Source of the DNA: Dehalococcoidia bacterium
GTDB lineage: Bacteria > Chloroflexota > Dehalococcoidia > Lucifugimonadales > Australimonadaceae
Assembly (NCBI GenBank): GCA_022820645.1
Contig: JAJEFD010000006.1
Span: 79,537-143,536, forward strand
DNA length: 64,000 bases
Direction of reading: 5' to 3'
In this document: positions 1-60,610 of the stretch, piece by piece
How the letters are laid out: each line of letters opens with the position of its first letter
Numbering within the stretch: position 1 is the stretch's first letter
Program-made: the position numbers and the translations under genes
The notes under the pieces: generated by a model
What the model saw: the letters and a program-made list of their open reading frames with translations, nothing else
Told to the model about the DNA's origin: nothing
The model's database searches: none

Positions 1-1238
1 TCGAAACGCTTCTCGTAGTACGTGAGGTGGTAGCGCCAGGCGTAACGAGCATACTCGGGCCATTCGTACCCCAGTTCCAGCGCGCGATGCACTCCCAGGT
101 AATATGCGTTCGCTTCTTCGTAGGCCTCCTGGTCGGGGAGGCCCAGCTCCACTTTCGCGGTAGCGAACACCTGGGCGTACACGTGCGCCTCCCGGTACGG
201 GTCCTCCCACCGCAGCGTGATCGCCCGGCTGTGCGCGTCCACGTACGCCGTGGCGAACGCTGCCGTCCAGCTCGGGATCTGGTCCTCTTCGACGTCGCCC
301 CGTTCCGCCCAACGTTTCGCGTCCACGTAGCCGTGACGGTAGGCGATGGCATACAGGAGACGTTGCCGTGTCGCCCTGTAGCCGCCGTACGGGCGGGAGC
401 GTTCGTAGCCCTCAAGGAAGATGTCGGACAGTTCGACGCCCTCGTCGTCGGAATACTCGTCGTCGATGCGGTAACCGGCGAAGACGGATGCGTATGCATG
501 GACGCCCACACGGCTGGCGTCGCTGCGGGCGAACGCTTCCGCGTAGTCCGTCGCATAGGTCGTTGCGGACGTGTCCTCGTGGAACGGCCAGTGCTCCGAG
601 TTCTTCCGCGCAGCCTCGCTTGCGCGGCCGAGCGCCAGCGCGACCGGGGCTGAGTCTCCGACCGCCTCCGCGAAGGCCGCCTCGTAGTCCGGCATGAAGT
701 CCGGGAGGTCATCGGGATAGTGGACGTCGATGCTGGTGCCCACGTAGAAGTGATAGAGGTAACCGGCGGCGTAGTCCTGCGCATCGTCGTCCGGCAGACC
801 CAGGGATTTCGCAACCGCGAACGCCCCCGCGAAGATGTCCACGTTCTTCCCCGTCAGGTCCTCATCGGCGGCGTACACGACCCCTTCTTCGTACCCCTCC
901 GGGAGCGGCGTGGGCGTAGCAGGTGGCGCGGGAGTTGGAGTCGCCGTAGGTTCAGGTGTCGGAGTGGCCGTCGGTTCAGGGATAGACGTGGCTGTTGCCG
1001 TCGGCGCAGGCACACGGGTTGGCGTTGCTGTCGACGTGGGCGTGGGCGTCGCCGTGGGTACCGGAGTCGGCGTAGCCGTCGGTTCCGGCGTGGGCGTTGC
1101 CGTCGGCGCAGGGGCCGGGGTTGCCGTCGGCTGTGGAGGCGGGACAGGGGTCGGGGTGGGGTCGTCGCCGTTGCAGGCGCTGAGCACGAGCGCGGCGGAC
1201 AGCATCGCCGCGAGGAACAGGCCGAGCCGTCGTTGCAT
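1..1238 (-). CDS. Secreted lipoprotein with a Pro/Thr-rich linker, function unknown (3' end runs off the window start)
   Basis: Absent from the ORF track because there is no stop inside the window. Reverse complement from ATG (comp. 1236-1238) reads MQRRLGLFLAAMLSAALVLSAC-NGDD (signal peptide plus lipobox LSAC). A ~75-aa (A/P)TPTP linker follows, then a Tyr/Ala/Asp-rich body ending ...YLGVHRALELGYEWPEYARYAWRYHLTYYEKRF, open to base 1. Plus-strand ORFs 27..653, 720..1352 and 835..1398 are its antisense shadows. Confidence 0.7.
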   Translation of the reverse strand, partial: MQRRLGLFLAAMLSAALVLSACNGDDPTPTPVPPPQPTATPAPAPTATPTPEPTATPTPVPTATPTPTSTATPTRVPAPTATATSIPEPTATPTPEPTATPTPAPPATPTPLPEGYEEGVVYAADEDLTGKNVDIFAGAFAVAKSLGLPDDDAQDYAAGYLYHFYVGTSIDVHYPDDLPDFMPDYEAAFAEAVGDSAPVALALGRASEAARKNSEHWPFHEDTSATTYATDYAEAFARSDASRVGVHAYASVFAGYRIDDEYSDDEGVELSDIFLEGYERSRPYGGYRATRQRLLYAIAYRHGYVDAKRWAERGDVEEDQIPSWTAAFATAYVDAHSRAITLRWEDPYREAHVYAQVFATAKVELGLPDQEAYEEANAYYLGVHRALELGYEWPEYARYAWRYHLTYYEKRF

Positions 1239-1263
1239 CTGGTGTCTACCTTCCCTGTGGATC

Positions 1264-1338
1264 TGGTCGGGGCGGCCAGGATCGAACTGGCGACCTCCTG
1301 CTCCCAAAGCAGGCGCGCTTCCGCTGCGCTACGCCCCG
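1264..1338 (-). tRNA. tRNA-Pro (anticodon TGG), CCA encoded
   Basis: Reverse complement folds as a cloverleaf. Acceptor CGGGGCG/CGCCCCG; D arm GCGC-AGCGGAA-GCGC; anticodon arm CCTGC-TTTGGGA-GCAGG (anticodon TGG); T arm GCCAG-TTCGATC-CTGGC; discriminator A plus CCA. Length 75 nt. Confidence 0.93.
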
Positions 1339-1407
1339 GCGCTGCCTCTTAGTGTAGCGCAATGGGATGGAGGGCTTGCGTCGTTGCGCAAAGTATGATA
1401 TTCGTTC

Positions 1408-1440: not shown

Positions 1441-2823
1441 ATGCTCATCCAGCGCGCTCCGGACGTATACGAGAAGCTGCGCCACCTCGGCGGGATGGCG
1501 ACGGACGACGTGCTCTCGCCTGCCGAGCGCTCGGACGGTATGGCGCGTCCGAGCGAGGGCTGGGAGCGCGTGGGGCCGCGCGGCGGGGTGACGCCGCACG
1601 CCGGCGTCTACAGGGCCGCGATGCCGAACGGCAAGCGGATCTCCCTGATGCGCGTGATGTTCACGGACCACTGCATCATGGACTGCCACTACTGCCCCAA
1701 CTCCTACTGGGTGCCCCGCAGGCGCTACGGGTTCAAGGTAGACGAGCTCGCGAGGCTGTTCGACGAGATGCACAGCCGCCACATGGTGGAAGGGCTCTTC
1801 CTCAGCTCCGGCATCTTCAAGGACCCGAACGCCACGCAGGAACGGCTGCTGGACGTGGTGGAGGCGATACGCTCGCGCTACGGGTTCAGCGGCTACGTCC
1901 ACCTCAAGGTGATGCCCGGCACGAGCACGGACGCGCTGCTCGAGCAGAGCCAGAGGCTCGGCGCGCGGCTCTCCGTCAACATGGAATCCCCATCCGCGGA
2001 GCACCTGCGGAAGGTCAGCACGATGAAGGACTTCGACAACGGTATCGTCGCGCCGATGAAGCGCATCAGCGAGCTCATGCAGGAGCGCTACGGCGGCGCG
2101 GTCGGCCAGGCGACGCAGCTCGTGGTCGGCGCGGCTGACGAGTCGGACTGGGACATCTACGCGCGGATGCGCAGCCTCTACGGGGAGTACGGTTTCAAGC
2201 GCGTCTACTACTCCGCCTTCCGCCCCGTGCAGTACACGCCGCTGGAGGAACACCCCGCGACGCCGCCCGCTCGCGAGCACCGCCTCTACCAGCTGGACTG
2301 GCTGTCCCGTATCTACGGCTACGACACGGAGGAACTGCGTCCCGCCTTCGACACGGGCGGCTTCCTAGAATTGCGCGCCGACCCGAAGCTGATGATCGCG
2401 GTGAACAACTTCGAGCGCTTCCCCGTCGACGTCAACCACGCGAGCGAGCGCGAACTGCTGCGCGTTCCCGGCGTTGGGCCGCTGGCCGCGAACCGCATCG
2501 TGAAGCAGCGGGCGCAGCACACCATCACGCAGCGGCAGGAGCTGCAGGCGATGGGAGTGGTGCTGAAGCGTGCGATGCCTTTCCTGCGCTTCCCGGGCCA
2601 CAAGCCCGTGGCCGCGAAGCAGGGCGAACTGGCGCTCTTTCCGGAGCAGAGCACGGTCCGCTCGCAGCCGGCGCCCTTTCCCCGTCATTCCCGCTTCTCC
2701 CGTCATTCCCGCGAAGGCGGGAACCCAGACGCGCGCCGAACGGTTGAGCTGCACGCGGCGCACGCGGCGTCCGGCTGCGCGTCGTGTCCGCTCAATCCCG
2801 GGACCTGCGGGATGGCCGCATGA
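1441..2823 (+). CDS. Radical SAM protein of the 'putative DNA modification/repair radical SAM' type with a C-terminal helix-hairpin-helix
   Basis: CxxxCxxC cluster motif (DHCIMDCHYCPNS). Family-typical blocks GLFLSSGIFKDPNATQERLL, GYVHLKVMPGTS, ARLSVNMESPS. HhH motif LLRVPGVGPLAANRIVKQR. Strong RBS AGAGGAGG. The last ~45 aa are encoded by a repeat element plus read-through. Confidence 0.8.
   Translation: MLIQRAPDVYEKLRHLGGMATDDVLSPAERSDGMARPSEGWERVGPRGGVTPHAGVYRAAMPNGKRISLMRVMFTDHCIMDCHYCPNSYWVPRRRYGFKVDELARLFDEMHSRHMVEGLFLSSGIFKDPNATQERLLDVVEAIRSRYGFSGYVHLKVMPGTSTDALLEQSQRLGARLSVNMESPSAEHLRKVSTMKDFDNGIVAPMKRISELMQERYGGAVGQATQLVVGAADESDWDIYARMRSLYGEYGFKRVYYSAFRPVQYTPLEEHPATPPAREHRLYQLDWLSRIYGYDTEELRPAFDTGGFLELRADPKLMIAVNNFERFPVDVNHASERELLRVPGVGPLAANRIVKQRAQHTITQRQELQAMGVVLKRAMPFLRFPGHKPVAAKQGELALFPEQSTVRSQPAPFPRHSRFSRHSREGGNPDARRTVELHAAHAASGCASCPLNPGTCGMAA
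2684..2730 (+). repeat. Family A palindromic repeat (GTCATTCCCGCGAAGGCGGGAAyCCAG), 1.5 tandem copies, inside the 3' end of the radical SAM ORF
   Basis: gtcattcccgcttctcc + cgtcattcccgcgaaggcgggaacccagac. Hairpin ATTCCCGC-GAAG-GCGGGAA. The same element recurs at 10716..10745 and, inverted, at 39710..39738. Confidence 0.8.
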
Positions 2824-2905
2824 GCGCCGCAGGCCGGATCGAGGTTCTACGCCGCGCCGCAGGGGTGCTACTATCCACGCGAACGAACGAGGACGGACGG
2901 GAACG

Positions 2906-3367
2906 ATGCTCAGCGTCGGCACACAGGCCCCCGACTTCACCCTGCCGCTCAACACCGGTGACCTCTTCACCCTCTCGGAGCAGCGCGGGCGGAACGTCGT
3001 GCTCTTCTTCTTCCCGCGCGCAGGCACCCCGGGGTGAACCTGGGAGGCCGCGGAGTTCCGCGACAATCACGAGCGTATCGCCGCCGCAGACGCGGTTGTG
3101 GTGGGCATCAGCACGGACGGCTCCGACGCGCTTACCGACTTCGCTCAGAGCATCGGCCTGCCCTACTACTTGGCGTCCGACCGCTCCGGCGAGGTGCGGC
3201 GTCTGTACGACGTGCGGCGCCGCTTCGGGCTGGGCACCTCCCGGTTCACCTACGTCGTGGACGCTGCCGGAGTGATCCGGAGGGTGTACCACAACGAGTT
3301 CGTCATGAAGAGCCACGCCCGCAGCGCGCTCGAGGCGCTGGAAGCGCTCCGCAACGGCCGGGCATAG
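2906..3367 (+). CDS. bcp: Bcp/PrxQ-type thiol peroxidase with in-frame TGA (3035..3037) at the peroxidatic Cys position; probable selenocysteine
   Basis: The tail of ORF 2570..3037 and ORF 3098..3367 are in the same frame. Joined, they read MLSVGTQAPDFTLPLNTGDLFTLSEQRGRNVVLFFFPRAGTPG-[TGA]-TWEAAEFRDNHERIAAADAVVVGISTDGSDALTDFAQS... This is collinear with E. coli Bcp ...YFYPKAMTPGCTVQACGLRD...GISTD. Total length 153 codons, normal for Bcp. Confidence 0.75.
3049..3062 (+). promoter_or_regulatory. Candidate bacterial SECIS-like hairpin downstream of the in-frame TGA
   Basis: CGCGG-AGUU-CCGCG stem-loop. The loop begins 19 nt after the U of UGA and contains GU. Confidence 0.4.
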
Positions 3368-7037: not shown

Positions 7038-8123
7038 ATGAGCGCCTCCGTCGGATTCCACTTGCCGCCCAGAGCCGTATCCCGGCTGGACACGCTGGTG
7101 GACGGCATCGAAGCGAACCCGGGCCCGCTGCTGAACCCCGCCGCACTGCGCGAGGCATCCGAAGATTTGGATATCCGCAGCGCGATTGAACAATTGCCGG
7201 ACGGCATGTCTCTCGAAGACTTCGTCGGCATCCTCAAACTGGCGATGCTCACCGAGTGCGCTACCGACTCGTACTCAGCCGTCTTCCAGGACGGCGCGGA
7301 GCGGTTCGACTCCCCCTGGCTGGCCCGGTTCAACGAGCGCATCTGGACCCCGGACGAGCACACCCACTACACGCCGTACAAGCTCATGCTGCAGTCGCTC
7401 GGCTACTCCGATGAGGAGTTGGACCGCGAGATGCGCGAGGTGCAGGAGCGCAACTACGAGCACTGCTGCGGCCGCACCCCCATCGAACTGACCACCTACG
7501 GCATCATCCAGGAGTACCTCACCGACAACTGGCACGGCATGATCAGCCAGCTGCTGAAGCCGTCCGCGCCCTACGCAGCCAGGTGCGCTTCCATGGTGAA
7601 GCGGCGCGAGACGCTCCACACCACCTGGTACCGGGAGATGACCGCCATACAGGTGGAAGAGAACCCGGAGATGCTTCACCTGGTGGCCGACACTGTGCTC
7701 ACGTTCCAGATGCCGGGGACGCGGCTCGTTCCCGAGTTCGGCACCCGATCGCTCGAATGGATGAGCAAGGCGAACGTGGACTTCCCCCGCGTCGCGAGGG
7801 ACTTCGTACGCAACTTCCAGCAGGTCGCGGGGACGATGAAGCGCGCCGGCCAGCTCTTCGTGGAACTCGCGGCGAGGCGCGGCGTGAAGCTCGGCCCGAT
7901 GCCGCTGAGCGCCGCCCGCCGGGTGCTGGACAAGATTGGCGGGCCCGGCTACGGACTTCTCGGCGAGGCGCTGCTGGACAAGTTCGGCATCCCCCGTCCG
8001 ACTACCGAGAGCCAGACCGGGCCTGTCAGCCTGCCGCCCCGGATGTACGAGGCGTTCCGCGCCCGTGTACGGGGCATGATCATCCGACGGATAGAAACAG
8101 CCGCCATCATCGGCGAGGTCTAA
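7038..8123 (+). CDS. Ferritin-like diiron-carboxylate protein, acyl-ACP desaturase family
   Basis: Four-helix diiron ligand pattern E...ExxH...E...ExxH: LTECATDSY, WTPDEHTHY, IIQEYLTDNW, KRRETLHTTWY. RBS-like CAGGAGC precedes the ATG. Confidence 0.55.
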   Translation: MSASVGFHLPPRAVSRLDTLVDGIEANPGPLLNPAALREASEDLDIRSAIEQLPDGMSLEDFVGILKLAMLTECATDSYSAVFQDGAERFDSPWLARFNERIWTPDEHTHYTPYKLMLQSLGYSDEELDREMREVQERNYEHCCGRTPIELTTYGIIQEYLTDNWHGMISQLLKPSAPYAARCASMVKRRETLHTTWYREMTAIQVEENPEMLHLVADTVLTFQMPGTRLVPEFGTRSLEWMSKANVDFPRVARDFVRNFQQVAGTMKRAGQLFVELAARRGVKLGPMPLSAARRVLDKIGGPGYGLLGEALLDKFGIPRPTTESQTGPVSLPPRMYEAFRARVRGMIIRRIETAAIIGEV

Positions 8124-8218
8124 CGGCCATTCCTCGACTGCCACGTCTGCCACTGCGGCCCGCGGTTCGCGCCGCCAAGCGCGCAGGCACGCCTGCAACC
8201 GACCTCCTCGCGCGCAAA

Positions 8219-9391
8219 GTGTTCCTCTCCGCCGTCGGCAGGATCAAGATAGGCTCCCTCCGCATCGAGACGCCCGACGGCGGCAGGTCCTACTCCTTCG
8301 AGACGACCGCCCCCGGCCCGCAGGGTGAGCTCCGGATACACGACGATTCGTTCTACCGGCGCGTGCTCACGGGGGGCGAGGTCGGCTTCGGCGAGGCGTA
8401 CCAGGACGGCATCTGCGATTCGCCGAACCTCGAGCAGCTGATCAGGCTGGCGATACTCAACCGGCAGGCGGTGGACTTGAACAAGGGAGCGATGCGCCTC
8501 CTCTCCAAGCGCTCCAACCTCCGGCTCCACCGCTCCCGCGCCAACACGAAGGAGCAGAGCAAGGACAACATCCACGCGCACTACGACATCGGCAACGCGT
8601 TCTTCCAGCTCTTCCTGGACTCGACCCTCACCTACTCCAGCGCGGTCTTCGCGTTCGAGGGACAGCTGCTCGCCGACGCACAGGCCAACAAGTACCAGCG
8701 CATGTGCGAGTTCGCGGGCATCACGGCTGAGAGCCGCGTGCTGGAGATCGGCAGCGGCTGGGGCGGATTCGCCATGCACGCGGCGCGCGAGTTCGGCTGC
8801 CACGTCACGACCGTCACCATCTCGCAGGAGCAGTTCGACCTCGCCTCGGAGCGTATCGCGGAAGCGGGGCTGAGCGACCGCATCGACATCCGCCTCATGG
8901 ACTACCGGGACGTCCAGGGCACGTTCGACAGCATCGTCTCCATCGAGATGTTCGAGGCCGTCGGCGCAGAGTTCTTCGAGACGTTCTTCCTCAAGAGCGC
9001 GTCGCTGCTGAAGCCGGGCGGCAAGCTGGCGATGCAGGTCATCACCGTGCCGGACCGGAACTTCGAGGCCCAGAAGCGCGGCGTGAACTGGATACAGAAG
9101 TACATCTTCCCCGGCGGCGTGCTGCCGTCGCTCGCCGCGATGGAGCAGGCGAACGCCCGCACGGGGCTCATCATCGCGTCCGTCGACCACATCGGAAAGC
9201 ACTACGCCGTGACGCTGCGGCAGTGGCGCAAGACGTTCTGGGACCGCATCGAGGAGGTGCGCGCCCTGGGCTACGACGAACGCTTCGTCAGGACGTGGGA
9301 CTACTACCTCGCGGCCTGCGAGGCCGGTTTCCTCACGAGCACCACGGACGACATCCAGATCGTCTTCGAGAAGCCCGCCCTCGCCGCCTGA
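8219..9391 (+). CDS. cfa: Cyclopropane-fatty-acyl-phospholipid synthase
   Basis: AHYDIGNAFFQLFLDSTLTYSSAVF, SAM motif VLEIGSGWGGFAMHAA and a C-terminal YYLAACEAGF block. There is no ATG before the conserved core. Start set at the first in-frame GTG after the upstream stop; the true start lies somewhere in 8126-8219. Confidence 0.8.
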   Translation: MFLSAVGRIKIGSLRIETPDGGRSYSFETTAPGPQGELRIHDDSFYRRVLTGGEVGFGEAYQDGICDSPNLEQLIRLAILNRQAVDLNKGAMRLLSKRSNLRLHRSRANTKEQSKDNIHAHYDIGNAFFQLFLDSTLTYSSAVFAFEGQLLADAQANKYQRMCEFAGITAESRVLEIGSGWGGFAMHAAREFGCHVTTVTISQEQFDLASERIAEAGLSDRIDIRLMDYRDVQGTFDSIVSIEMFEAVGAEFFETFFLKSASLLKPGGKLAMQVITVPDRNFEAQKRGVNWIQKYIFPGGVLPSLAAMEQANARTGLIIASVDHIGKHYAVTLRQWRKTFWDRIEEVRALGYDERFVRTWDYYLAACEAGFLTSTTDDIQIVFEKPALAA

Positions 9392-20389: not shown

Positions 20390-22597
20390 TCAGATAAGCC
20401 GGTCCCAGAACTGCGTGATCGTCTCCCTGCCCTTCAGGATGTCCGGGATGAAGTCCCCCAGCACCGGGTCTATCCACGGGATGTGGATGATGAGATCGAA
20501 GAAGCCGTAGATCAGCACGAGGAAGACGATGAGCCACCCCAGGGCGACCCACCAGCGAACGCGCCCGAAGATGAGCAGGTAGAGGAAGACGTATCCGGGC
20601 AGGGCGATCTGGAAGCCGATGAGCCATATCGCCAGAACGAGCCCGAACGTAGTGCCGATGGCCTTCGCCGTGCGGCGCATGAGGACGCGGCGGTCGTCGT
20701 CGGTGCGGGTCCTCCCGATGTCCATGATGCGGCCCCCTCCGGACGAGGGAAAGGCAAAGTGGAACACAGTGTAGATGCCGGTGAGCACGAGCCCCACTAC
20801 GGTAATCACGCGGGGGAGACGGGCCGCCTCGTTCGTCCATCCGAACGATTGCCAGAGTGTAAACGCGAAAGCGAACACCAGAAGTGCGATGAACACGCCA
20901 CTTGGAGTCGGCTGCAGCAGCTCCGACAGCAACGGGCGCTTTCGCGTCCGCACAGGTTCGGCCTGGGCGGCCTCCGTCGCGTCATCGCTGGCGCCTGCGG
21001 GTGGAGGCTGAGCAGCCTCCGTGCGGGTTGCGAACTCGGCTTCCTGCCTCGCCATGGTGCGGTTCACACTGCGTTGCATACGCACCGTGTAGGCGGCGGT
21101 GCCCACGGCGATGGCGATGATGATGATGACGGCCGGGCGTGTGAAGACCCCCTCCGTCGGATTGGAGAAGTTCACCCAGTCGAACGCGCCGCTGGAAATA
21201 CCGTAGAAGCGCTCGATGATGCCCCCAAGGATGACGGCGATGATGATGGGCGGACGCGGCCATCCATAGGACTTCATGAAGTAGCCGAGAGCGCCGAACG
21301 CCAGCATCACGACGAGATCGTAGATCGAGCGGTTCGCCTGGAACGCGGCAATCGTCATCACGGCAAGGATGATTGGGACAAGGATGTTCGGTCGAACGAA
21401 AGCGATACGCGTGAGCAGCGGCGTGAATCCAAGCGCCATTCCGGTGGCAAGTACGTTCGCCATCACCAGCGATATCGCTATCGTCATGGTGAGCGGGAGC
21501 TGGTTGTTCAACATGTCCGGACCGGGACGCACGTCCAGGATGATGAGCAGGCCGAGGAAGAGCGCCATACCGACCGAACCCGGCACCCCGAAGAAGAGCG
21601 TCGGCACCAGCTGGCCTCCGTCCACGGCGTTATTCGCCGACTCGGGCGCGATGACGCCCCGTATATCCCCTGTTCCGAACGTCTCCGTGCCGCCGCGCAC
21701 GGTCTGACGCGCCGAGGCGTATGACAACCATTGCGCCAGCGAGCCACCGATGCCCGGCAGCAGCCCGACGAACACACCCATGGCGGCGGAGCGTATGACG
21801 AGGAGCCAGTTCCGCAGTACGGAGGTCATCCCCTCGCGGCGCTGCGCGGACGCGTCGATCGTGGAAGTCTCCGCACGGCGGGCGATGGACACGTCGCTGA
21901 CCACCATGTCGAAGAACTCGGGGATGGCGAAGAGGCCGATGACCACCGGGATGATGTGGATGCCGTCCCAGAGGTAGTTCTGCCCGAACGTCAGGCGGTG
22001 CGCGCCCGTGGCGTCGTCATAGCCGACGCTGGCGATGAGCAGGCCGAACGCGCCCGCGATGAGGCCCCGCAGCAGCGCCCCACTGCTGACAACGCCGACC
22101 ACGGCGATGGCGACGAGGCCGAGGACGAAGAACTCCGCCGCGCTGAACGTGTTGACGACAGGCCGGGCAACGGGAATGGTCATGAACAGGAATATCGCGC
22201 CGATGATGCCGCCCAGCAGCGACGCGAAGTAGGCCGCGGAGAGCGCCACGCCTGCCCTGCCCCGTCGAGCGAGCGGGTTGCCGTCCAGGATCGTCGCCTG
22301 GCCGGAGGTTGAGCCGGGCATGCCGAGCAGCACGGCGGGCAGCGTGTCGCCCGTCGGCACTGTCGCCACCATCCCGATGGCGAGTGGCAACGCGATGTAC
22401 GGGTCGAGCCCGTAGGCGAAGCCAAGGAGCACGATGAGGCTGGGCACGGCACCGCCGGGCATCGCGCCGTTCAGTACGCCAACGACCACCCCCACGATGA
22501 GCGCGAGGATGGGCCTCCAGTCGGCGAGGTTGCCAATGGCCTCCCCGCCCGCATCGAACATCGCGGGAAAGCCTTCCAGGATCGAATCTATGAACAT
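20390..22597 (-). CDS. tctA: TTT large permease TctA with a fused C-terminal 4-TM module (TctB-like)
   Basis: The N-terminal ~500 aa are TctA-like (LIVLLGFAYGLDP, LLGMPGSTSGQATILDG). A hydrophilic linker follows (EAAQPPPAGASDDATEAAQAEP), then about 190 aa with 4 predicted TM helices. Total 735 aa. Confidence 0.75.
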   Translation of the reverse strand: MFIDSILEGFPAMFDAGGEAIGNLADWRPILALIVGVVVGVLNGAMPGGAVPSLIVLLGFAYGLDPYIALPLAIGMVATVPTGDTLPAVLLGMPGSTSGQATILDGNPLARRGRAGVALSAAYFASLLGGIIGAIFLFMTIPVARPVVNTFSAAEFFVLGLVAIAVVGVVSSGALLRGLIAGAFGLLIASVGYDDATGAHRLTFGQNYLWDGIHIIPVVIGLFAIPEFFDMVVSDVSIARRAETSTIDASAQRREGMTSVLRNWLLVIRSAAMGVFVGLLPGIGGSLAQWLSYASARQTVRGGTETFGTGDIRGVIAPESANNAVDGGQLVPTLFFGVPGSVGMALFLGLLIILDVRPGPDMLNNQLPLTMTIAISLVMANVLATGMALGFTPLLTRIAFVRPNILVPIILAVMTIAAFQANRSIYDLVVMLAFGALGYFMKSYGWPRPPIIIAVILGGIIERFYGISSGAFDWVNFSNPTEGVFTRPAVIIIIAIAVGTAAYTVRMQRSVNRTMARQEAEFATRTEAAQPPPAGASDDATEAAQAEPVRTRKRPLLSELLQPTPSGVFIALLVFAFAFTLWQSFGWTNEAARLPRVITVVGLVLTGIYTVFHFAFPSSGGGRIMDIGRTRTDDDRRVLMRRTAKAIGTTFGLVLAIWLIGFQIALPGYVFLYLLIFGRVRWWVALGWLIVFLVLIYGFFDLIIHIPWIDPVLGDFIPDILKGRETITQFWDRLI

Positions 22598-22603
22598 GCC
22601 GGA

Positions 22604-23971
22604 CTATGCTCGCTGTAGCCGCACCTCTTCGTAGCGGCGGTAGATCTCCAGTATCTGGTTCAGCGCGGGACTGTACCTGTCCATGTGGTAGTGGCTCAAC
22701 TTGAATCCTGCGTTGTCTCCCACCACGGCAGTCATGTCCCCCATCTCTGTCAGGCTCATCCGGTGGTCATCCTTCTCAGAGAATGCAGAGCGGGTGACCG
22801 GCCCCGGCAGTACGTTGACCGGCAGGTCTATCCGTTCATTCACAGCGGGGTCCCGGAACACGTTTATCGGGTCGCCGCCGTCCTGCACGATCTTCATCTG
22901 GTCCATCAGCAGTTTGCGGAACATGATGACGCCGCGGTCGGAGACGCCGAGGCGTTCGTTCTCGCGGTCGGCGATGGCTCCCTGGCTCCACCATGCCGCC
23001 AGGTCCTGCGCGAGGACGTAGTCGGCGATGGGGCGCCCCGCCTCATCGAACAGCGGATGCTCGAAGTAGGGTACGTAGTCCTGCTCCGGCACCTCCACGT
23101 CCGGCCCGGGGCAGTACGCCATGTAGTCCAGGTGCAGCGTGTGCTCGTCGTCCATCGGCACTCGTATCTGCAGCTCGCTGCGTATCTTCCCGCCGAGGCG
23201 GACGAAGTACGGGAACACGAGCGGGTGGCCTATCGTCCAGTCCGGTGTGTCTTCGGCTTCACCCTCACGGAGACGGTACTTCTGGATACCCCACTCGTTC
23301 ACTTCCCACTCCGTTTTCAGGTGGCGGACCTTGAACGAGTCTGCATGCTCCTGTGCGATCGCATCGTGCTCCGGATTGCCGGTGCCGCCGCCGCGGTCCA
23401 GAACGTGGTACTCGAACCACCAGCCGTGCGTGTACTCGGTGTGCGAGGTGTCGACCGAGTTCTCCATGCACTGGAGCCAGTTGGCGTTCAGCACGGAGGC
23501 GCCGACGTGCCGGTACGTGTTGTCCCAGACGAGCACGTCCCAGCGCGGGAGGAGCGGCACGGGCTCCGGGCCCAGGTAGGCGAATATCAGCCCGCCCAGC
23601 TCCTGCACCGGGTACGACTTGATGCGCACCTTCTCGTTGAAGTGCGAGCCTTCCGGCTCCGTCGGCTGGTCTACGCACTGGCCGTTCACGTCGTACATCC
23701 AGCCGTGATACATGCAGCGCAGACCCTCCTCGGTGGGGATCCCGATGGAGAGGTCGACGCGCCGGTGCGCGCAGCGCCGGTCCACGAGGCCGATCCTGCC
23801 GCTCTTGTCCTTGAAGAGCGTCAGATCCTCGCCGAGCAGACGCACGGATATGACGGGGTCGCGAAGCAGCCGTCCGTTGCTGGTGACAGGCCACCAGTAG
23901 CGGCGGAGCAGTTCGCCCATGGGCGTGCCCGCGCCGGTCTGCGTCAGCAGTACGTTCTCTTCCGCACGCAT
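22604..23971 (-). CDS. Rieske [2Fe-2S] non-heme-iron oxygenase, alpha subunit (phthalate-family, alpha-only type) - R0
   Basis: Rieske motif CAHRRVDLSIGIPTEEGLRCMYHGW, mononuclear-iron motif NSVDTSHTEYTH, strong RBS AAGGAGGAG. Confidence 0.85.
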   Translation of the reverse strand: MRAEENVLLTQTGAGTPMGELLRRYWWPVTSNGRLLRDPVISVRLLGEDLTLFKDKSGRIGLVDRRCAHRRVDLSIGIPTEEGLRCMYHGWMYDVNGQCVDQPTEPEGSHFNEKVRIKSYPVQELGGLIFAYLGPEPVPLLPRWDVLVWDNTYRHVGASVLNANWLQCMENSVDTSHTEYTHGWWFEYHVLDRGGGTGNPEHDAIAQEHADSFKVRHLKTEWEVNEWGIQKYRLREGEAEDTPDWTIGHPLVFPYFVRLGGKIRSELQIRVPMDDEHTLHLDYMAYCPGPDVEVPEQDYVPYFEHPLFDEAGRPIADYVLAQDLAAWWSQGAIADRENERLGVSDRGVIMFRKLLMDQMKIVQDGGDPINVFRDPAVNERIDLPVNVLPGPVTRSAFSEKDDHRMSLTEMGDMTAVVGDNAGFKLSHYHMDRYSPALNQILEIYRRYEEVRLQRA

Positions 23972-29973: not shown

Positions 29974-31068
29974 CTACAGCCCGTAGAGCGCCACGGAGTT
30001 GTCGACGAGCACCTTGCGCTTCGACTCCTCGCTGATGGTGTCGAGATTGCGGAAGGTTTCGATGGCGTCGACCTCGCTGGACGTGTCCGTGTGGCCGTAG
30101 TCCGTGCCGATGACGATGTTCTCGTCGCCGACGTAGTCGAACACGTACGGGAAGTCGTCGTCGGTCTGGGCGGAGACGTAGATGTTGTATTCCTTGAACG
30201 GGTTGTCCGGGTAGTACCAGCCGGCCTGCTTCGCGCGGCGGGAGGACTCGTGGATGATCCACGGCACCCACTGGCACGACGACTCGATGAAGCCCCAGCG
30301 CAGTTCGGGGTAGCGCTTCGGGACGTCGCTCAGGATGAGGCCGTTGCAGGCGTGGACGGTCGGCATCCGGAAGGTGGGCAGGCCGCCGCTGGGGTCGTAG
30401 GCGGACGCGATCGCGCTGACGTACGCCTCGTTCGCGTTCGCGATATGGATGGTCATCGCAAGGTCGTTCTCCTGCGCCGCCTCGAAGTACGGGAAGAAGT
30501 ACGGGTCGAGCATGAAGCGGTGCCCCTCGAACGGCTTCGTCACCACGCCCACCGCACCGTTCTCCTTCACCCACGGCATCCAGTCGATGGCGGTGTCGAG
30601 GTCAGTCAGCGGGAGGACGGCGGCCCAGCGCAGGCGTCCGCCGGACTCCTTCCAGGCCTCGGCCATCCAGCGGTTCCACGCCTTGCAGAGGGCGCGGTCC
30701 ACTTCCGGGCGCTGCGACACGTCGCGGATCCAGAGCGTGTTATGGAGGATCTGGATGTCCACCCCGAGCCTGTCCATGTGCGCGAGGCGCAGCGAGATAT
30801 CGTCGAGGGAGCGTGCCTCCTCGGACGTGACGAGGTCGCGCCCGGCGCGCTCGGACATCGCCTTCAATTCGCGCTCGACCGGCGACGCGGGGCGGAGCCC
30901 TGCGATGCGTCCGTCGATCACCCAGTAGCGGCTCGCGGGCCTCTCCGGGTTCGTGAAGAGGAACGGGCGGAACTGCTTGTCCGCCTCGTCGAGGTAGTCC
31001 CACGTCTGCTCGCTCTCGATGACGTGCGCGTCCGCGTCGATAGCCTTGTACTTCACCGCCGTGGTCAT
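29974..31068 (-). CDS. Amidohydrolase-2 (ACMSD-like metal-dependent hydrolase/decarboxylase) family protein
   Basis: Start at MTTAVKYKAIDADAHV (RBS AAGGAG). HxH-type N-terminal metal motif (DADAHV); MTIHIANA; C-terminal GTDYGHTD. Confidence 0.75.
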   Translation of the reverse strand: MTTAVKYKAIDADAHVIESEQTWDYLDEADKQFRPFLFTNPERPASRYWVIDGRIAGLRPASPVERELKAMSERAGRDLVTSEEARSLDDISLRLAHMDRLGVDIQILHNTLWIRDVSQRPEVDRALCKAWNRWMAEAWKESGGRLRWAAVLPLTDLDTAIDWMPWVKENGAVGVVTKPFEGHRFMLDPYFFPYFEAAQENDLAMTIHIANANEAYVSAIASAYDPSGGLPTFRMPTVHACNGLILSDVPKRYPELRWGFIESSCQWVPWIIHESSRRAKQAGWYYPDNPFKEYNIYVSAQTDDDFPYVFDYVGDENIVIGTDYGHTDTSSEVDAIETFRNLDTISEESKRKVLVDNSVALYGL

Positions 31069-31199
31069 GTCCTCACTCCTTTGGCGTATCGCTGCCTTCA
31101 GAACGCCCGTAGTATCCCGCACCCACGCCCCGCTGACAACAGCGCCCTTACTCCGTCGTCCCGCCTACCCCAGCCGCAGCGAAGTTTCCGGGGGAAACG

Positions 31200-39748: not shown

Positions 39749-40915
39749 CTACCCGCTGATCCCCGCGCCTGCGGGGACAGGCAGGCCGTAGAGCTTGGTG
39801 GTGCCCTTCCAGAGGATGCGCGATTTCTGTTCGTCGCTGAGGTCGGGGCGGTTGTAGATGTAGCGCGGCGAGTCCGGCACCCGGTGCGCGTGGGGGATGT
39901 CGCTCGCGTACACCCAGCAGTCCGTCCCGTACTTGTTCACCATGTAGGGCAGCAGGTCGTCGTCGACCTCGAAGCCGATGAAGATGCGGCCATCCCTGAT
40001 GTACTCCAGCGGCGTCGCCTCCGGCAGACCGCGCTCCACGATGGCCTTGTGCTCGGAGCGTATCGTGCCGAGCTCCAGCCGGTCCTTCACGTTGTCGAGC
40101 GTGAAGTCCATCACGGCGACGGCGAAGTCCACCCAGGTGCAGCCCGTCTCGAGGAACGACACCTTCACCTTCGGGTAGCGGTCGAGGATGCCGGAGCCGC
40201 AGATCGTCTTGAAGCCGCGCACCACCGACATGAGGAACTGGTCGCCCGCGATGTTGCGGTAGGTCTTCATCGCGTCGCGCGCGCCGGTGCCGGGGTGCAC
40301 GTTCACCGGCATCTCGAGGTCCTGCGCCGCGGCCCAGAAGCACTCGAGACTGGGGTGGTCCAGCGCCTTGTCGGAGTAGTCGCCGAACACCATCACGCCG
40401 ACCGAGCCCATCTTCTTCGTGCGTTCCATCTCGCGGACGGCCTCGGCGGGGTCGCGCGGGTCGATCGCCGTCACCCACTTCAGCCGGTCGGGCGACTGGT
40501 TGGAGACGTCGGCGACCCAGCTGTTGTAGGAGCGGGTGAGGGCGGCGTTCAGCGCCGGATCGCTGGCGATGGGCCAGCTCAAGAGCAGCGTGGGGTAGTT
40601 GACGGAGAGGTACGTGTTCTCCGCGTCCATCACCGCGAGCCGCGCCTCGGCGGAGTGGAACTCGCCGCTCTCGTGCGGGCCGCGCCACTTCGCCATCTTC
40701 TCGTACTCGGTGGAGACGACGCCGTCCTTGCTGGAGGGCGAGCCGCCGATGCGGATGCGCTCGCCGTCGATCTCCCAGATGAAGTCGTGCTCGAACTCGC
40801 CGGTCTCGACCACCTTCGGGCGGCGATCGCGGAACCCGGGCTCCAGGTAGTCGTCGGACCAGGTGGCCTCCCACTCCTCGACGTGCCCGTCGCCGTCCAC
40901 CGCCAGGATGTCCAT
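39749..40915 (-). CDS. Amidohydrolase-2 family protein
   Basis: Start at MDILAVDGDGHV (RBS GAGGAG). Further blocks VNVHPGTG and ASDIPHAH. Confidence 0.7.
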   Translation of the reverse strand: MDILAVDGDGHVEEWEATWSDDYLEPGFRDRRPKVVETGEFEHDFIWEIDGERIRIGGSPSSKDGVVSTEYEKMAKWRGPHESGEFHSAEARLAVMDAENTYLSVNYPTLLLSWPIASDPALNAALTRSYNSWVADVSNQSPDRLKWVTAIDPRDPAEAVREMERTKKMGSVGVMVFGDYSDKALDHPSLECFWAAAQDLEMPVNVHPGTGARDAMKTYRNIAGDQFLMSVVRGFKTICGSGILDRYPKVKVSFLETGCTWVDFAVAVMDFTLDNVKDRLELGTIRSEHKAIVERGLPEATPLEYIRDGRIFIGFEVDDDLLPYMVNKYGTDCWVYASDIPHAHRVPDSPRYIYNRPDLSDEQKSRILWKGTTKLYGLPVPAGAGISG

Positions 40916-41038
40916 CGCCCCTGCTCCTCGTTCCAAGATGGCGCAATCCTACCACGCGAGAGGGTGCCCGGCGCGCCCTACCCCTGTGCCACGGTATCTA
41001 GTAGAGTCCTTCCTGATACCAGCAGGAGGACCAGAACA

Positions 41039-41912: not shown

Positions 41913-41951
41913 TACGCTACGCAAATCTGCGCACGCGAGGTGAACGCACGC

Positions 41952-43280
41952 ATGCTCAGCGTCAAAGCGAACCAGGAACTCACGCAGGTCAGCGCAGGCA
42001 CGCCGATGGGCGAACTGATGCGACGCTACTGGCACCCCATCGCAGGAGCGGCGGAGCTCGACGAGCGCCCCACCAAGGCCGTCCGCCTGCTCGGTGAGGA
42101 CCTCGTCCTCTACAAGGACAAGTCAGGCACGCTGGGCCTCATCGACCGCTTCTGCCCGCATCGCAGGGTCGACCTCTCCTACGGCATCCCCGAGGAGCAT
42201 GGGCTCCGGTGCATGTACCACGGCTGGATGATGGACGAGACCGGCCAGTGCATCGAGCAGCCGTTCGAGGAGACCGTCCACCCGGACGGACGCTTCAAGG
42301 AGAAGGTCAAGGTCGCCGGCTACCCGGTCGAGGTCGCAGGCGGACTCGTGTTCGCGTACCTCGGGCCGCAGCCCGTCCCGTTCCTGCCGCTGTGGGAGCC
42401 GCTCGTGTGGGACAACGCGGTGCGCGACATCGCCATCTCCCACCTGCCCTGCAACTGGCTCCAGTGCCAGGAGAACTCGCTCGACCCTGTGCACGTCGAG
42501 TGGGCGCACTCCTACTGGGGGCAGTACGTGCAACAGGGCCCCGGTTTCAAAGGCGCGCTGCTCGACCTGCCGACCCACCAGAAGATCGGGTTCGACATCT
42601 TCGAGCACGGCGTCGTGAAGCGCCGCGTGTTCAAGGGCTACACCGAGGAGGACGACGACTGGAAGCACGGCCACCCGGTCTTCGTGCCGAACATCCTGCT
42701 CGTCGGCTCCGAGGTCTCGGTGACGATGCAGTTCCGCGTCCCGATAGACGACGAGAACACGCTGCACGTTTCCCTCTACACGTGGAGGGGCGCTCCCGGC
42801 CAGCCCGTGCCTAAACAGGAGTCCGTCCCCTACCGGGAGGTGCCGCTGCTCGACGAGAACGGCCGCTGGATCGTGGACGTGGTGTTCAACCAGGACTACA
42901 CGATGTGGGTGACGCAGGGGCCCATCGCCAAGCGGAACCTCGAGCATCTCGGCGAGTCCGACCGCGGCCTCATCCTCTACCGGAAGCTGCTCCGCGAGCA
43001 GATGGACATCGTCGCCGACGGCGGGGATCCGATGAACGTCTTCCGCACCCCCGCGCCGGAGGGCGGCATCGTCGCGCCGCTGGAGCGGGTCAAGTTCGGG
43101 ATGAAGCGCGCCAAGAAGTACATCCCCGGCGAGGCCGGATACTCCCGCGACGGTGAACTCATCAACCAGGTGCTCCAGACGTGGGAGGAGTTGCCGGATC
43201 GCGCGCCCGCTGCTTCCGAGGACGAACTCAAGGAGGCCGCAGGCGCCGTGGATGGCATCAAGGACAACTGGCCGCTGTAG
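41952..43280 (+). CDS. Rieske non-heme-iron oxygenase alpha subunit - R1
   Basis: CPHRRVDLSYGIPEEHGLRCMYHGW and NSLDPVHVEWAH. ATG with RBS GAGGTG, chosen by analogy with R3 (both start MLSVKANQELTQVSAGTP). Confidence 0.85.
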   Translation: MLSVKANQELTQVSAGTPMGELMRRYWHPIAGAAELDERPTKAVRLLGEDLVLYKDKSGTLGLIDRFCPHRRVDLSYGIPEEHGLRCMYHGWMMDETGQCIEQPFEETVHPDGRFKEKVKVAGYPVEVAGGLVFAYLGPQPVPFLPLWEPLVWDNAVRDIAISHLPCNWLQCQENSLDPVHVEWAHSYWGQYVQQGPGFKGALLDLPTHQKIGFDIFEHGVVKRRVFKGYTEEDDDWKHGHPVFVPNILLVGSEVSVTMQFRVPIDDENTLHVSLYTWRGAPGQPVPKQESVPYREVPLLDENGRWIVDVVFNQDYTMWVTQGPIAKRNLEHLGESDRGLILYRKLLREQMDIVADGGDPMNVFRTPAPEGGIVAPLERVKFGMKRAKKYIPGEAGYSRDGELINQVLQTWEELPDRAPAASEDELKEAAGAVDGIKDNWPL

Positions 43281-44719: not shown

Positions 44720-45997
44720 ATGCTCAGCGTCAAGGCCAACCAGGAACTCACGCAGGTCAGCGCAGGGACGCCGGGGGGCGAGCTCATGCGCCGCTACTGG
44801 CACCCCATCGCCGCGACGGCGGAGCTCGACGAGCGCCCCACCAAGCCGGTGCGGCTGCTCGGCGAGGACCTCGTCCTCTACCGCGACAGATCCGGCACCC
44901 TGGGCCTCATCGAACGCTTCTGCCCCCACCGTCGGGTCGACCTCTCCTACGGCATACCGGAGGAGAACGGCCTCCGATGCATGTACCACGGCTGGATGAT
45001 GGACGAGACCGGCCAGTGCATCGAGCAGCCCTTCGAGGAGACGGTCCATCCGGACGGACGCTTCAAGGAGAAGGTCAAGATCGCGGGCTATCCTGTGGAG
45101 GAACTCGGCGGCCTCATCTTCGCGTACATGGGCCCGCAGCCCATGCCGCTGCTGCCGCGATGGGAGCAGCTGACGTGGGACAACGCGGTGCGCGAGATCT
45201 GCATCTCCGAACTGCCGTGCAACTGGCTGCAGTGCCAGGAGAACTCACTCGACCCCGTCCACAACGAGTGGCTCCACGCCTACTACGGCAACGTCGTCCG
45301 CAACGGCGTCCACGCGCTGCCCGAACTGCGCGGCACACACCTCAAGATCGGGTTCGACGTCTTCGAGCACGGCATCATCAAGCGCCGCGTCGAGGCCGGA
45401 TACACCGAGGAGGACGACGACTGGAAGGAAGGCCACCCCATCATGTTCCCCAACATCCTCCTGGTGGGCGACGAGGTGCGCTCCACGTTCCAGTTCCACG
45501 TGCCCGTGGACGACGAGAACACATACCACGTCTCCTACTACGTGTGGCGTCCCGCGCCCGGAGCACAGGCCCCGCGTCAGGAGAGCGTCCCCTACCGCTA
45601 CGTGCCGCTGAAGGACGAGAACGACCGCTACATCAACGACATCCTCTTCAACCAGGACTACCTCGCGTGGGTCACGCAGGGCCCCGTCGCCAAGCGCCAC
45701 CTGGAGAAGCTCGGCGAGTCCGACAAGGGCACCATCCTCTTCAGGAAGCTGCTGCAGGAGCAGGCGCAACTCGTCGCCGACGGCGGCGACCCGATGAACA
45801 CGTTCCGCGACCCCGAGCAGAACGAGGCGATCAGCCTGCCGCTGGAGCACGTGAAGTTCGGCAACCGCCGCCGCATGGGCTACACGCTCGTCGAGGCCGG
45901 TGAGCCGGTCGTAGCCGACGTCGTGAACGAGACGCTGGAAAGCTGGGAGGGCATGCGCAGCCTGCCGCGCACCGCAGGGGCCGCGCACGGGGCGTAG
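44720..45997 (+). CDS. Rieske non-heme-iron oxygenase alpha subunit - R3
   Basis: CPHRRVDLSYGIPEENGLRCMYHGW and NSLDPVHNEWLH. Confidence 0.85.
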   Translation: MLSVKANQELTQVSAGTPGGELMRRYWHPIAATAELDERPTKPVRLLGEDLVLYRDRSGTLGLIERFCPHRRVDLSYGIPEENGLRCMYHGWMMDETGQCIEQPFEETVHPDGRFKEKVKIAGYPVEELGGLIFAYMGPQPMPLLPRWEQLTWDNAVREICISELPCNWLQCQENSLDPVHNEWLHAYYGNVVRNGVHALPELRGTHLKIGFDVFEHGIIKRRVEAGYTEEDDDWKEGHPIMFPNILLVGDEVRSTFQFHVPVDDENTYHVSYYVWRPAPGAQAPRQESVPYRYVPLKDENDRYINDILFNQDYLAWVTQGPVAKRHLEKLGESDKGTILFRKLLQEQAQLVADGGDPMNTFRDPEQNEAISLPLEHVKFGNRRRMGYTLVEAGEPVVADVVNETLESWEGMRSLPRTAGAAHGA

Positions 45998-46140: not shown

Positions 46141-47424
46141 ATGCTGACGCAGGAAGCGAACGACCGCTACACCCGGGTAGGCCCCGGCACCCCGATGGGC
46201 GAGCTGATGCGACGCTACTGGCACCCCGTAGCCGCCGTCTCCCAGATGAACGACAAGTGGACGATGAAGGTGCGCCTCTTGGGCGAGGACCTCATCCTCT
46301 ACAAGGACCGCTCCGGCACGTTCGGCCTCATGGAGCCGCACTGCGCCCACCGGCGCATGAACATGATTTACGGCATCCCTGAGGAGCACGGCCTCCGCTG
46401 CCCATACCACGGCTGGCTGTACGATGAGACGGGCCAGTGCACCGAGCAGCCGTACGAGGAGACAGAGGACCCGGAGGCGCGGTTCAAGGACAAGATCCAG
46501 ATGAAGGCGTACCCGGTGGAGCAGAAGGCCGGGCTGCTGTTCGCCTACCTCGGCCCGACGCCCGTGCCCCTCATCCCCAACTACGACGTCTTCTCCGCGA
46601 CCGGCGTCCTGCGCGACATCGGCTACGCGATGCTCCCGTGCAACTGGCTGCAGTGCCAGGAGAACTCGCTGGACCCGGTGCACCTCGAGTGGCTGCACGT
46701 CGCGTGGGCCAACTTCATCCGCGAGATGAACGGCGACAAGGAACGCCGCACCCGCTGGCCGCACAAGACCATCCGCTTCGACGCCTTCGAGCACGGCATC
46801 ATCAAGCGCCGCATCTGGGAGGGCGGTTCCGAAGAGGACACCGAGTGGAAGGACGGCCACCCCATCGTCTTCCCCAACTACCTGCGACAGGGCGGCGACG
46901 GCTACAACGTTGCCGACGGCAGGTACCGGGGCAGCTTCTCGATGGGCCCCGCCTTCCAGATCCGCACCCCCATCGACGACTACAACACCGCCCACTGGTG
47001 GGTCGCCTGCTACCCGATGATCGAGGGCGACGTCGAGCAGGCGCCGGAGGAGATCCCCTTCTACCTCCCGCCCGTGCCGACGCTGGACGAGAACGACCAG
47101 CCCATCTATCCCGAACTGCGCAGCAACTCCTCGCAGGACCCGGCGGCATGGATAACGCAGGGCGGCATCGCCGACCGCACGGGCGAGCACCTCGGCCGCT
47201 CCGACAAGGGCATCATCATGTTCCGCCAGATGCTGGAGGACAACATGCGCATCGTCGAGGACGGCGGCGACCCGATGGAGGTCTACCGAGACCCCGCGGA
47301 GAACGTCTACATCCCGTTCATGACGGAGCAGCACAACTACGTGGACACCTCGTCCCGCCAGGGGGCGGCGACGATGTACTCGCCCATCCTGGATAGGCGG
47401 GAAGCCGCAGCTGCGGCCAAGTAG
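46141..47424 (+). CDS. Rieske non-heme-iron oxygenase alpha subunit - R4 (more divergent)
   Basis: CAHRRMNMIYGIPEEHGLRCPYHGW and NSLDPVHLEWLH. RBS AAGGAGAG. A perfect TATAAT lies at 46087-46092. Confidence 0.85.
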   Translation: MLTQEANDRYTRVGPGTPMGELMRRYWHPVAAVSQMNDKWTMKVRLLGEDLILYKDRSGTFGLMEPHCAHRRMNMIYGIPEEHGLRCPYHGWLYDETGQCTEQPYEETEDPEARFKDKIQMKAYPVEQKAGLLFAYLGPTPVPLIPNYDVFSATGVLRDIGYAMLPCNWLQCQENSLDPVHLEWLHVAWANFIREMNGDKERRTRWPHKTIRFDAFEHGIIKRRIWEGGSEEDTEWKDGHPIVFPNYLRQGGDGYNVADGRYRGSFSMGPAFQIRTPIDDYNTAHWWVACYPMIEGDVEQAPEEIPFYLPPVPTLDENDQPIYPELRSNSSQDPAAWITQGGIADRTGEHLGRSDKGIIMFRQMLEDNMRIVEDGGDPMEVYRDPAENVYIPFMTEQHNYVDTSSRQGAATMYSPILDRREAAAAAK

Positions 47425-57282: not shown

Positions 57283-57393
57283 GATGACACACCTCTCTCG
57301 CACGAGTATCCGGGCAGCGGCATGATATGCTCCGCATCTGCCACCGGCAAACCTACCGCGCTCTGGCGCGCCACAGAAACAGGGAGGAACACC

Positions 57394-58485: not shown

Positions 58486-58534
58486 CGCCTCCCGCCCACC
58501 GCATAGACACCAGCCGAAAGGAAGACCAGCCCTC

Positions 58535-60598: not shown

Positions 60599-60610
60599 GT
60601 CAGGGCGTGG

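Follow-up and report, generated by a model that had tools for sequence, protein, structure and literature searches.

A Bcp/PrxQ-like peroxiredoxin gene of Dehalococcoidia/SAR202 bacteria with a conserved in-frame UGA that very probably encodes the catalytic residue as selenocysteine

The 64-kb stretch of marine Chloroflexota (SAR202/Dehalococcoidia) DNA analysed here (the window; GC content about 0.66–0.68) carries, on the forward strand at positions 2906–3367, a Bcp/PrxQ-type peroxiredoxin coding sequence of 153 residues with one in-frame UGA at residue 44. The frame starts at ATG 2906 and reads MLSVGTQAPDFTLP...FFFPRAGTPG up to the TGA at 3035–3037, the N-terminal half from the ATG to the TGA translating as MLSVGTQAPDFTLPLNTGDLFTLSEQRGRNVVLFFFPRAGTPG, and after the TGA it runs unbroken (TWEAAEFRDNHERI... 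/ TWEAAEFRDNHERIAAADAVVVGISTDG...) to a TAG at 3365–3367. This TGA is the sole interruption in the 153 sense or selenocysteine (Sec) codons. The mechanical list of open reading frames cuts the gene into two pieces, 2570–3037 and 3098–3367, a split already pointed out in the sequence-only reading of this DNA, and all coordinates which that reading had assigned to a Bcp-like frame passing from the ATG through the TGA to the TAG were borne out by the sequence. The joined product also has the normal family length that had been claimed for it, Cys-type Bcp/PrxQ proteins being about 150–160 aa long. Elsewhere, the window encodes Rieske/LigXa-like oxygenases, amidohydrolases, TctA transporters, ribonucleotide reductase and similar proteins.

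Searched against Pfam with Cys standing in for the TGA codon, the joined 153-residue product matched the AhpC/TSA family (PF00578) over residues 4–126 with an E-value of 4.9e-32, covering positions 1–123 of the 124-position profile, and matched the Redoxin family as well. Among solved structures, the best match found with phmmer was the Bcp 3drn, aligned over its full length (E 2.5e-26), followed by 5enu and 5epf; in total, 21 PDB entries matched at E ≤ 1e-10, most of them deposited as Bcp-type peroxiredoxins. The assignment of the open reading frame at 2906–3367 to this family is further consistent with the equal length of 14 orthologues, described below. The top matches in NCBIfam were the Bcp model NF006960 (87 bits, cut-off 140) and the PrxQ model NF053650 (82 bits, cut-off 260), both below their cut-offs. 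By best match the protein is therefore to be described as Bcp/PrxQ-like, its scores lying below the cut-offs of the curated Bcp and PrxQ equivalog models. It is not an orthologue of PrxU, the 233-position model of which (NF040737) gave 39 bits against a 270-bit cut-off, and the model for the thiol peroxidase Prx-SUH with a CxxU motif (NF045827) gave only 22.6 bits against a cut-off of 298 bits, the motif here being TxxU, with no Cys.

The alignments to solved Bcps place the TGA exactly in the column of the peroxidatic residue, which is Ser in 3drn (TPG-S-T) and Cys in both 5enu and 5epf (TPG-C-T), confirming the earlier proposal that the codon falls on the catalytic Cys. Read as Sec, it would yield the motif P37-R-A-G-T41-P-G-U44. 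Pro37 (3014–3016, forward strand) of this PxxxTxxU signature aligns with the conserved Pro of the solved Bcps, Thr41 (3026–3028, forward strand) with the Thr of their TPGC motif, and Arg113 (3242–3244, forward strand; TSR-FTYVVD), the active-site arginine, with the Arg of the '-R-(I/S)TF(V/L)ID' segment of 3drn and 5enu. The E-A-x-x-F-R-D helix downstream of the TGA aligns with 3drn, 5enu and 5epf too, as does R113. The window peroxiredoxin itself contains no Cys residue. In the relatives, Cys residues are scattered, occurring four positions after the Sec (L003 and L008), 33 positions after it (L004, L013, L014, L085 and L086) or elsewhere, and no conserved resolving Cys was found in either the window protein or the relatives compared.

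To assess the conservation of the gene, we collected relatives from contig look-ups and from a scan of species-representative genomes, obtaining 16 loci (L001–L014 and L085–L087, with L006 lying on the same NCBI contig as L001), of which 15 are loci of Dehalococcoidia/SAR202 metagenome-assembled genomes (MAGs) and one, L002, is an unbinned Logan metagenome contig. The titles of entries L001 and L005–L014 name Dehalococcoidia, Chloroflexota or the 'SAR202 cluster'. Among the closest relatives are the assembly CBDCQO01 (L005, 96% identity) and two complete chromosomes, OZ242210.1 and OZ242348.1. All 16 relatives carry an in-frame TGA at codon 44, never another stop codon or a sense codon, although the codons flanking it do vary, codon 42 encoding P, K or R and codon 46 encoding W, R, L or Q. 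The 14 distinct orthologous coding sequences are each 462 nt long, with zero indels among them, and the catalytic Pro, Thr and Arg are the same in every one. Wherever flanking sequence is present, the gene lies in the same neighbourhood, comprising genes for a radical-SAM/HHH protein, the peroxiredoxin, a MoCF-biosynthesis protein and TrmD, followed by an MBL-like gene. One relative, L085, bears a frameshift in the N-terminal half; its source is a 7x long-read assembly, and the frameshift is most simply an assembly error.

The sequence-only reading had proposed checking whether close relatives show Cys codons or TGA at this position, and the outcome was uniform, with TGA in all 16 close relatives and TGC or TGT in more distant homologues. 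The nearest Cys homologues (51–65% identity), among them the Dehalococcoidia loci L015–L020 (51–61% identity), have TGC or TGT at this codon. These loci sit in gene neighbourhoods other than those of the TGA-carrying loci, so that a direct switch from Cys to Sec between orthologues could not be demonstrated.

The pattern of substitutions indicates that both parts of the frame are under purifying selection. Using the Nei–Gojobori method pooled over all pairs, with bootstrapping of codons, we obtained a dN/dS of 0.25 (95% CI 0.13–0.43) for codons 1–43, upstream of the TGA, and of 0.32 (95% CI 0.22–0.44) for the whole part downstream of it. Within the latter, the value was 0.36 (95% CI 0.16–0.77) for codons 45–64, which lie between the TGA and the GTG chosen by the gene caller, and 0.29 (95% CI 0.19–0.41) for codons 65–153, the remainder of the C-terminal half. 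On either side of the TGA the bootstrap values essentially never reached 1.

These observations bear directly on the possibility that the locus is a pseudogene, in which a nonsense mutation changed the Cys codon of a Bcp gene to TGA and the downstream part is decaying. Such an origin would require only one base change, from TGC or TGT to TGA, and the Cys homologues do carry these codons; the frameshift in L085 could likewise be counted in its favour, but for the 7x long-read assembly in which it was found. Yet the TGA has been kept in 16 loci over a dS of about 0.27, 14 sequences are without indels, both flanks have dN/dS values well under 1 and the catalytic residues do not vary. That the loci are merely near-clonal MAG copies is spoken against by this same dS together with species-level dereplication. 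None of the orthologues is decaying, contrary to what had been set out as a refutation of the original proposal, and we regard a pseudogene as very improbable.

Even less credit can be given to a sequencing or assembly error as the source of a spurious TGA, a chance that is close to negligible. We found no specific point in its favour, and the same TGA recurs in the relatives in NCBI, ENA and Logan assemblies made independently for many samples and projects, with the window's own 89-aa C-terminal product being present on eight contigs.

A third reading would take the UGA as a true stop that ends a 43-residue peptide, with the C-terminal part being translated separately from GTG 3098. All public gene calls do consist of 43-aa and 87–108-aa products, and a GTG at codon 65 is found in most relatives. 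However, L013 uses a different start-type codon, and L009 and L010 lack any in-frame ATG, GTG or TTG in codons 45–90, implying that their conserved C-terminal half can be made only by reading through the UGA. Moreover, codons 45–64 are maintained in frame under the constraint noted above and encode the T-x-E-A-x-x-F-R-D helix conserved in the family, and a peroxiredoxin that is cut at its catalytic residue, and lacks it, would be inactive. Two separate products are thus about as hard to credit as a pseudogene. Taken together, the comparative evidence, namely the conservation of the UGA, the selection acting on both halves and the lack of a restart codon in L009 and L010, rules out the pseudogene, split-gene and assembly-error readings for practical purposes, leaving one continuous gene that is read through its UGA.

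The same division of the gene is widespread in protein databases. In a collection of 5.8 billion proteins there was no full-length match with more than 65% identity to the joined product; instead, about 27 clusters of 87–108-aa proteins with 77–94% identity covered just the C-terminal 58% of the query, indicating that the same gene split is present in many relatives. Gene callers routinely split Sec-peroxiredoxin genes in two, and the earlier characterization of the locus as an easily mis-annotated recoding event holds for every public prediction that we retrieved, each of which gives a 43-aa and an 87–108-aa fragment. That the UGA recoding event is real and is systematically mis-annotated in public predictions is well supported.

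We then asked how exceptional this TGA is within the window. For a log-odds model of codon usage, 20 genes of the window verified by Pfam served as the training set, and 40 codons were scored on each side of all TGAs with 25 or more open codons in both directions (n = 394). The peroxiredoxin TGA ranked first of the 394 by two-sided coding signal, with scores of 0.50 and 0.45 on its two sides compared with a training mean of 0.52. An earlier scan for in-frame TGAs by a GC3 threshold had overlooked even the positive control. No second selenoprotein gene was found in the window, the codon-model scan having yielded no other in-frame TGA flanked by coding signal in both directions. Two further candidates were considered and rejected: at TGA 3900, the stop of the MoCF gene is followed by the start of TrmD, so that adjacent genes share one frame, and at 60613 on the reverse strand two adjoining genes for small membrane proteins likewise lie in one frame. 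Otherwise TGA serves as a regular terminator, with 18 of the 55 heuristic gene calls ending in it, which excludes a reassigned genetic code.

The latter result also weighs on the one remaining alternative to Sec, in which a suppressor tRNA, near-cognate read-through or an alternative code would place Cys, Trp or some other residue, and no selenium, at the UGA. In other systems, Cys is known to be inserted at Sec-UGA codons when selenium is limiting, and the window contains no Sec machinery. Pfam searches of 40 ORFs, including every ORF of fitting size, revealed no selA, selB or selD in the 64 kb, and the only tRNA detected there by ARAGORN was a tRNA-Pro, with no tRNA-Sec. Against decoding without selenium stand the regular use of TGA as a stop and the peroxiredoxin being the only gene with two-sided coding signal around a TGA; furthermore, the site is the position of a redox-active Cys in a family with documented Sec forms, a hairpin lies where a SECIS element is expected, and a related genome carrying the same gene has SelA, SelB and SelD. 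We consider such selenium-free decoding unlikely, if somewhat less so than the readings dismissed above. With a conserved in-frame UGA at the catalytic residue, the codon almost certainly encodes Sec.

The related genome is that of 'SAR202 cluster bacterium bin16', whose contig MPMJ01000026.1 harbours the locus L012 with the same TGA gene. The accession MPMJ00000000 corresponds to bin16 of Slaby et al. 2017 (PMC5649159), and in Table S4 of that study bin16, the 15th genome column, is listed with one copy each of COG1921 (SelA), COG3276 (SelB) and COG0709 (SelD). By counting the columns of the same table, the SAR202 bins bin90, bin87, bin22 and bin127 likewise list SelA and SelB (PMC5649159). 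At the level of the class, two Dehalococcoidia MAGs are among the ten most selenoprotein-rich bacteria in BSepDB, with 49 and 46 selenoprotein genes (PMC13326102). The Sec machinery that the gene leads one to expect is accordingly documented for a close relative (bin16) and for the class Dehalococcoidia, rather than directly for the source genome.

Downstream of the UGA, at 3049–3062 on the forward strand, we confirmed the previously noted hairpin CGCGG-AGUU-CCGCG, a putative bacterial SECIS core with a 5-bp G+C stem and an AGUU tetraloop. It starts 11 nt past the UGA, its loop (3054–3057) lies 19–22 nt from the U of the UGA, and G and U occupy positions 2 and 3 of the tetraloop. None of the 14 distinct orthologues deviates from this hairpin, not even at any synonymous site of the Ala-Glu-Phe-Arg codons that it spans, and it is absent from the Cys homologues L015–L020. 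Of the 1414 TGA trinucleotides of the window, 13 (0.9%) have, 9–13 nt downstream, a perfect hairpin with a stem of 5 bp or more and a GU-containing loop, and only two (0.14%) have the strict form, with a spacer of 11 and a loop of 4. As an isolated 18-nt element, the hairpin folds with −8.9 kcal/mol (z = −3.0), whereas longer stretches around the UGA fold no better than their shuffled versions (z = +0.78, −0.5 and −0.98).

For a bacterial SECIS, a stem of 5 bp is short. The covariance-model check suggested earlier for this region did not lend support, as no Rfam SECIS family matched the whole window at the gathering threshold or positions 2980–3140 at E ≤ 10, where only noise was returned. The core stem shows no covariation among the 14 distinct orthologues, and evidence of this kind is impossible to obtain from a stem that is invariant. 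The hairpin bases encode the conserved peptide A-E-F-R-D in preferred codons ending in G or C, so constraints on the protein and codon bias alone could explain much of the invariance; synonymous variation near the hairpin is low, but equally low in other stretches of the gene. RNAalifold, applied to the 14 sequences, adds one G-C pair beyond a mismatch on the core stem and keeps pairs 13–43, 14–42 and 15–40 along with an outer GGUG/CAUC helix, including one GC>GU>AU series, with a covariation term of just −0.49 kcal/mol. This consensus weakly suggests an extended stem at 3031–3082 (forward strand) that would enclose the UGA. From its position, GU loop and invariance, we consider the hairpin at 3049–3062 a plausible SECIS element.

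The whole of the evidence is best explained if 2906–3367 is one intact Bcp/PrxQ thiol peroxidase gene in which the peroxidatic Cys has been replaced by Sec, and this is very probably the case. The original suggestion of a Sec-encoding UGA at the peroxidatic position is supported by the conservation of the UGA and by the purifying selection on both halves. During translation, UGA 3035 would be decoded by Sec-tRNA(Sec) brought by SelB, which in turn would be recruited by the mRNA hairpin at 3049–3062, starting 11 nt downstream and presenting its AGUU loop; the weak lower stem that includes the UGA may extend this recruiting structure. With T41 and R113 activating it, the U44 selenolate would, by analogy with peroxiredoxin chemistry, attack a hydroperoxide and be converted to a selenenic acid. 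Given that the window protein has no Cys and its relatives no conserved one, we propose a '1-Sec' mechanism, whereby the oxidised Sec would be reduced directly by an external thiol, for example that of thioredoxin or glutaredoxin. A more specific scenario, in which a cysteine-free, single-Sec Bcp/PrxQ with a minimal SECIS of 5 bp and an AGUU loop became fixed in the SAR202 clade through a lineage-specific Cys-to-Sec conversion, is put forward as a tentative one that we think is rather unlikely to hold in all its parts. Should the 14-nt hairpin alone suffice for the SelB of SAR202, few natural bacterial SECIS elements would be smaller, and the hairpin could serve as a convenient recoding tag.

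The main value of these results is for annotation, and selenoprotein biology as known is left unchanged. Because the gene is annotated in two pieces, functional profiles of SAR202/Dehalococcoidia genomes would miss an active peroxidase; at least one of the carriers is a sponge symbiont (SAR202 bin16). Recognizing the gene would add a selenium-dependent peroxide defence to the repertoire of these bacteria, and it implies a selenium requirement and Sec machinery in the source genome. For developers of selenoprotein gene finders, the locus provides a clean and well-conserved training example, in which the UGA is followed, after a spacer of 11 nt, by a hairpin with a GU tetraloop.

As anticipated in the sequence-only reading, the family is not a new one, since Sec-containing peroxiredoxins with a TxxU motif have long been known (PMC1794560, PMC2398784, PMC13188914). 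The family 'Prx, PF00578, TxxU' comprised 12 genes and five independent Cys-to-Sec conversions in a bacterial survey (Zhang et al. 2006, PMC1794560), Sec-Prx, with 253 sequences from 34 samples, was among the most abundant selenoprotein families in the GOS ocean data analysed in 2008 (PMC2398784), and the family is listed in a 2026 review (PMC13188914). The gene described here shares with it the AhpC/TSA fold and, very probably, the replacement of the peroxidatic Cys by Sec within PxxxTxxU. The TxxU family as a whole is characterized by far more numerous Cys homologues, repeated Cys-to-Sec conversions and abundance in marine metagenomes, whereas our gene represents a lineage-specific Dehalococcoidia/SAR202 clade with its own conserved neighbourhood and appears as two ORFs in every public protein prediction retrieved. 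We found no paper explicitly linking SAR202 with a Sec-containing Bcp, but the gene may well be present already in genome-wide catalogues such as BSepDB.

Comparison with Cys-type Bcp/PrxQ proteins, such as Sulfolobus Bcp1 (3drn), the Burkholderia protein 5enu and Xanthomonas BCP (3gkk), shows a full-length match, the same size and the same catalytic Pro, Thr and Arg; the differences are the UGA/Sec in place of the peroxidatic Cys and the lack of a resolving Cys in the window protein. The experimentally characterized representative among Sec-peroxiredoxins is reportedly PrxU of Eubacterium (Peptoclostridium) acidaminophilum, said to have been described by Sohling and colleagues (Sohling et al. 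2001) as thioredoxin-dependent. PrxU has Sec at the peroxidatic position, as the window protein very probably does, and the two probably share the same chemistry, with a selenenic acid reduced by a thiol partner, but PrxU belongs to another peroxiredoxin subfamily of a different size (233 positions in its model) and to an amino-acid-fermenting anaerobic Firmicute rather than a high-GC Chloroflexota host. As for the putative recoding signal, the SECIS of Escherichia coli fdhF is a SelB-binding hairpin located directly 3' of the UGA, with an 11-nt spacer and a GGUC loop. Compared with it, the candidate hairpin has just a 5-bp perfect stem, no obvious bulged U and no Rfam match; common to the two are the location inside the coding sequence, the start of the hairpin 11 nt past the UGA and the G-U at positions 2 and 3 of the tetraloop. 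Judged from its sequence, the protein belongs to the known Sec-Prx kind as a Bcp/PrxQ-like form that is specific to a Dehalococcoidia/SAR202 clade, and, with the class known and the lineage rich in selenoproteins, its presence here would not surprise a specialist.

Two relatives whose peroxiredoxin gene, like that of the window, carries the in-frame TGA depart from the usual pattern. At L087, a locus on a short metagenome contig, the gene (208-663) encodes an N-terminus of the selenocysteine type, complete with the TGA and the putative SECIS hairpin, whereas its final ~40 residues change to a sequence resembling that of the clade with cysteine at this codon (RVTYVIDTEGLVRGAFHNEVVMGSH...), and PhyH lies downstream in place of the gene for the molybdenum cofactor (MoCF) biosynthesis protein. 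The mosaic stems either from recombination or from a chimera in the assembly. At L085 (1365-1827), on a long-read contig of 7x coverage, the parts encoding the N-terminal and C-terminal portions of the peroxiredoxin are out of frame with each other, a shift that probably reflects an indel error in the assembly rather than decay of the gene.

Among the relatives with the TGA-type peroxiredoxin gene, L004 (3431-3658), L009, L010, L013, L085, L088 and L089 contain an additional insertion of ~0.4 kb between the peroxiredoxin and MoCF genes, which is missing from the window and its nearest relatives. Within it, an ORF of 75 aa was called in L004, L088 and L089 and one of 97 aa in L085; the L004 product, for which no Pfam family is recorded, is hydrophobic at its C-terminus.

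A different in-frame TGA, ranked third when a codon-usage model was used to score both sides of the TGAs in the window, falls within 60137-60868 (-), downstream of a TctA transporter gene. Here, two small predicted membrane proteins of 85 aa and 153 aa, neither with a Pfam match, are encoded in a common frame, separated by the TGA and 4 codons. There is no redox motif at this TGA, and we rejected the locus as a recoded gene, the two ORFs looking like ordinary adjacent genes.

The sole RNA gene found in the window, tRNA-Pro(UGG) at 1264-1338 (-), overlaps two entries of the mechanical ORF list, 720..1352 (+) and 835..1398 (+), as well as one heuristic gene call, 1..1307 (-), all three of which are therefore suspect at the overlapping end. 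Two long ORFs have a Pfam domain confined to the C-terminal half: a CMAS methyltransferase domain spans residues 323-592 of the 602 encoded by 7583-9391 (+), and a gamma-glutamyltranspeptidase domain residues 475-987 of the 992 encoded by 55633-58611 (-). The N-terminal 320-470 residues of these ORFs have no Pfam match, and both may be over-extended, as is typical in high-GC DNA, or include unannotated N-terminal domains.

Finally, Pfam matches identified four mutually paralogous genes for Rieske [2Fe-2S]/LigXa_C-like oxygenases within this single 64-kb window (22604-23971, -; 41940-43280, 44720-45997 and 46141-47424, all +). Two Amidohydro_2 genes (29974-31122 and 39749-40936) accompany them, as do two for TctA transporters (20390-22597 and 60897-62927), and the pattern suggests that enzymes of oxidative catabolism have expanded here into paralogues.
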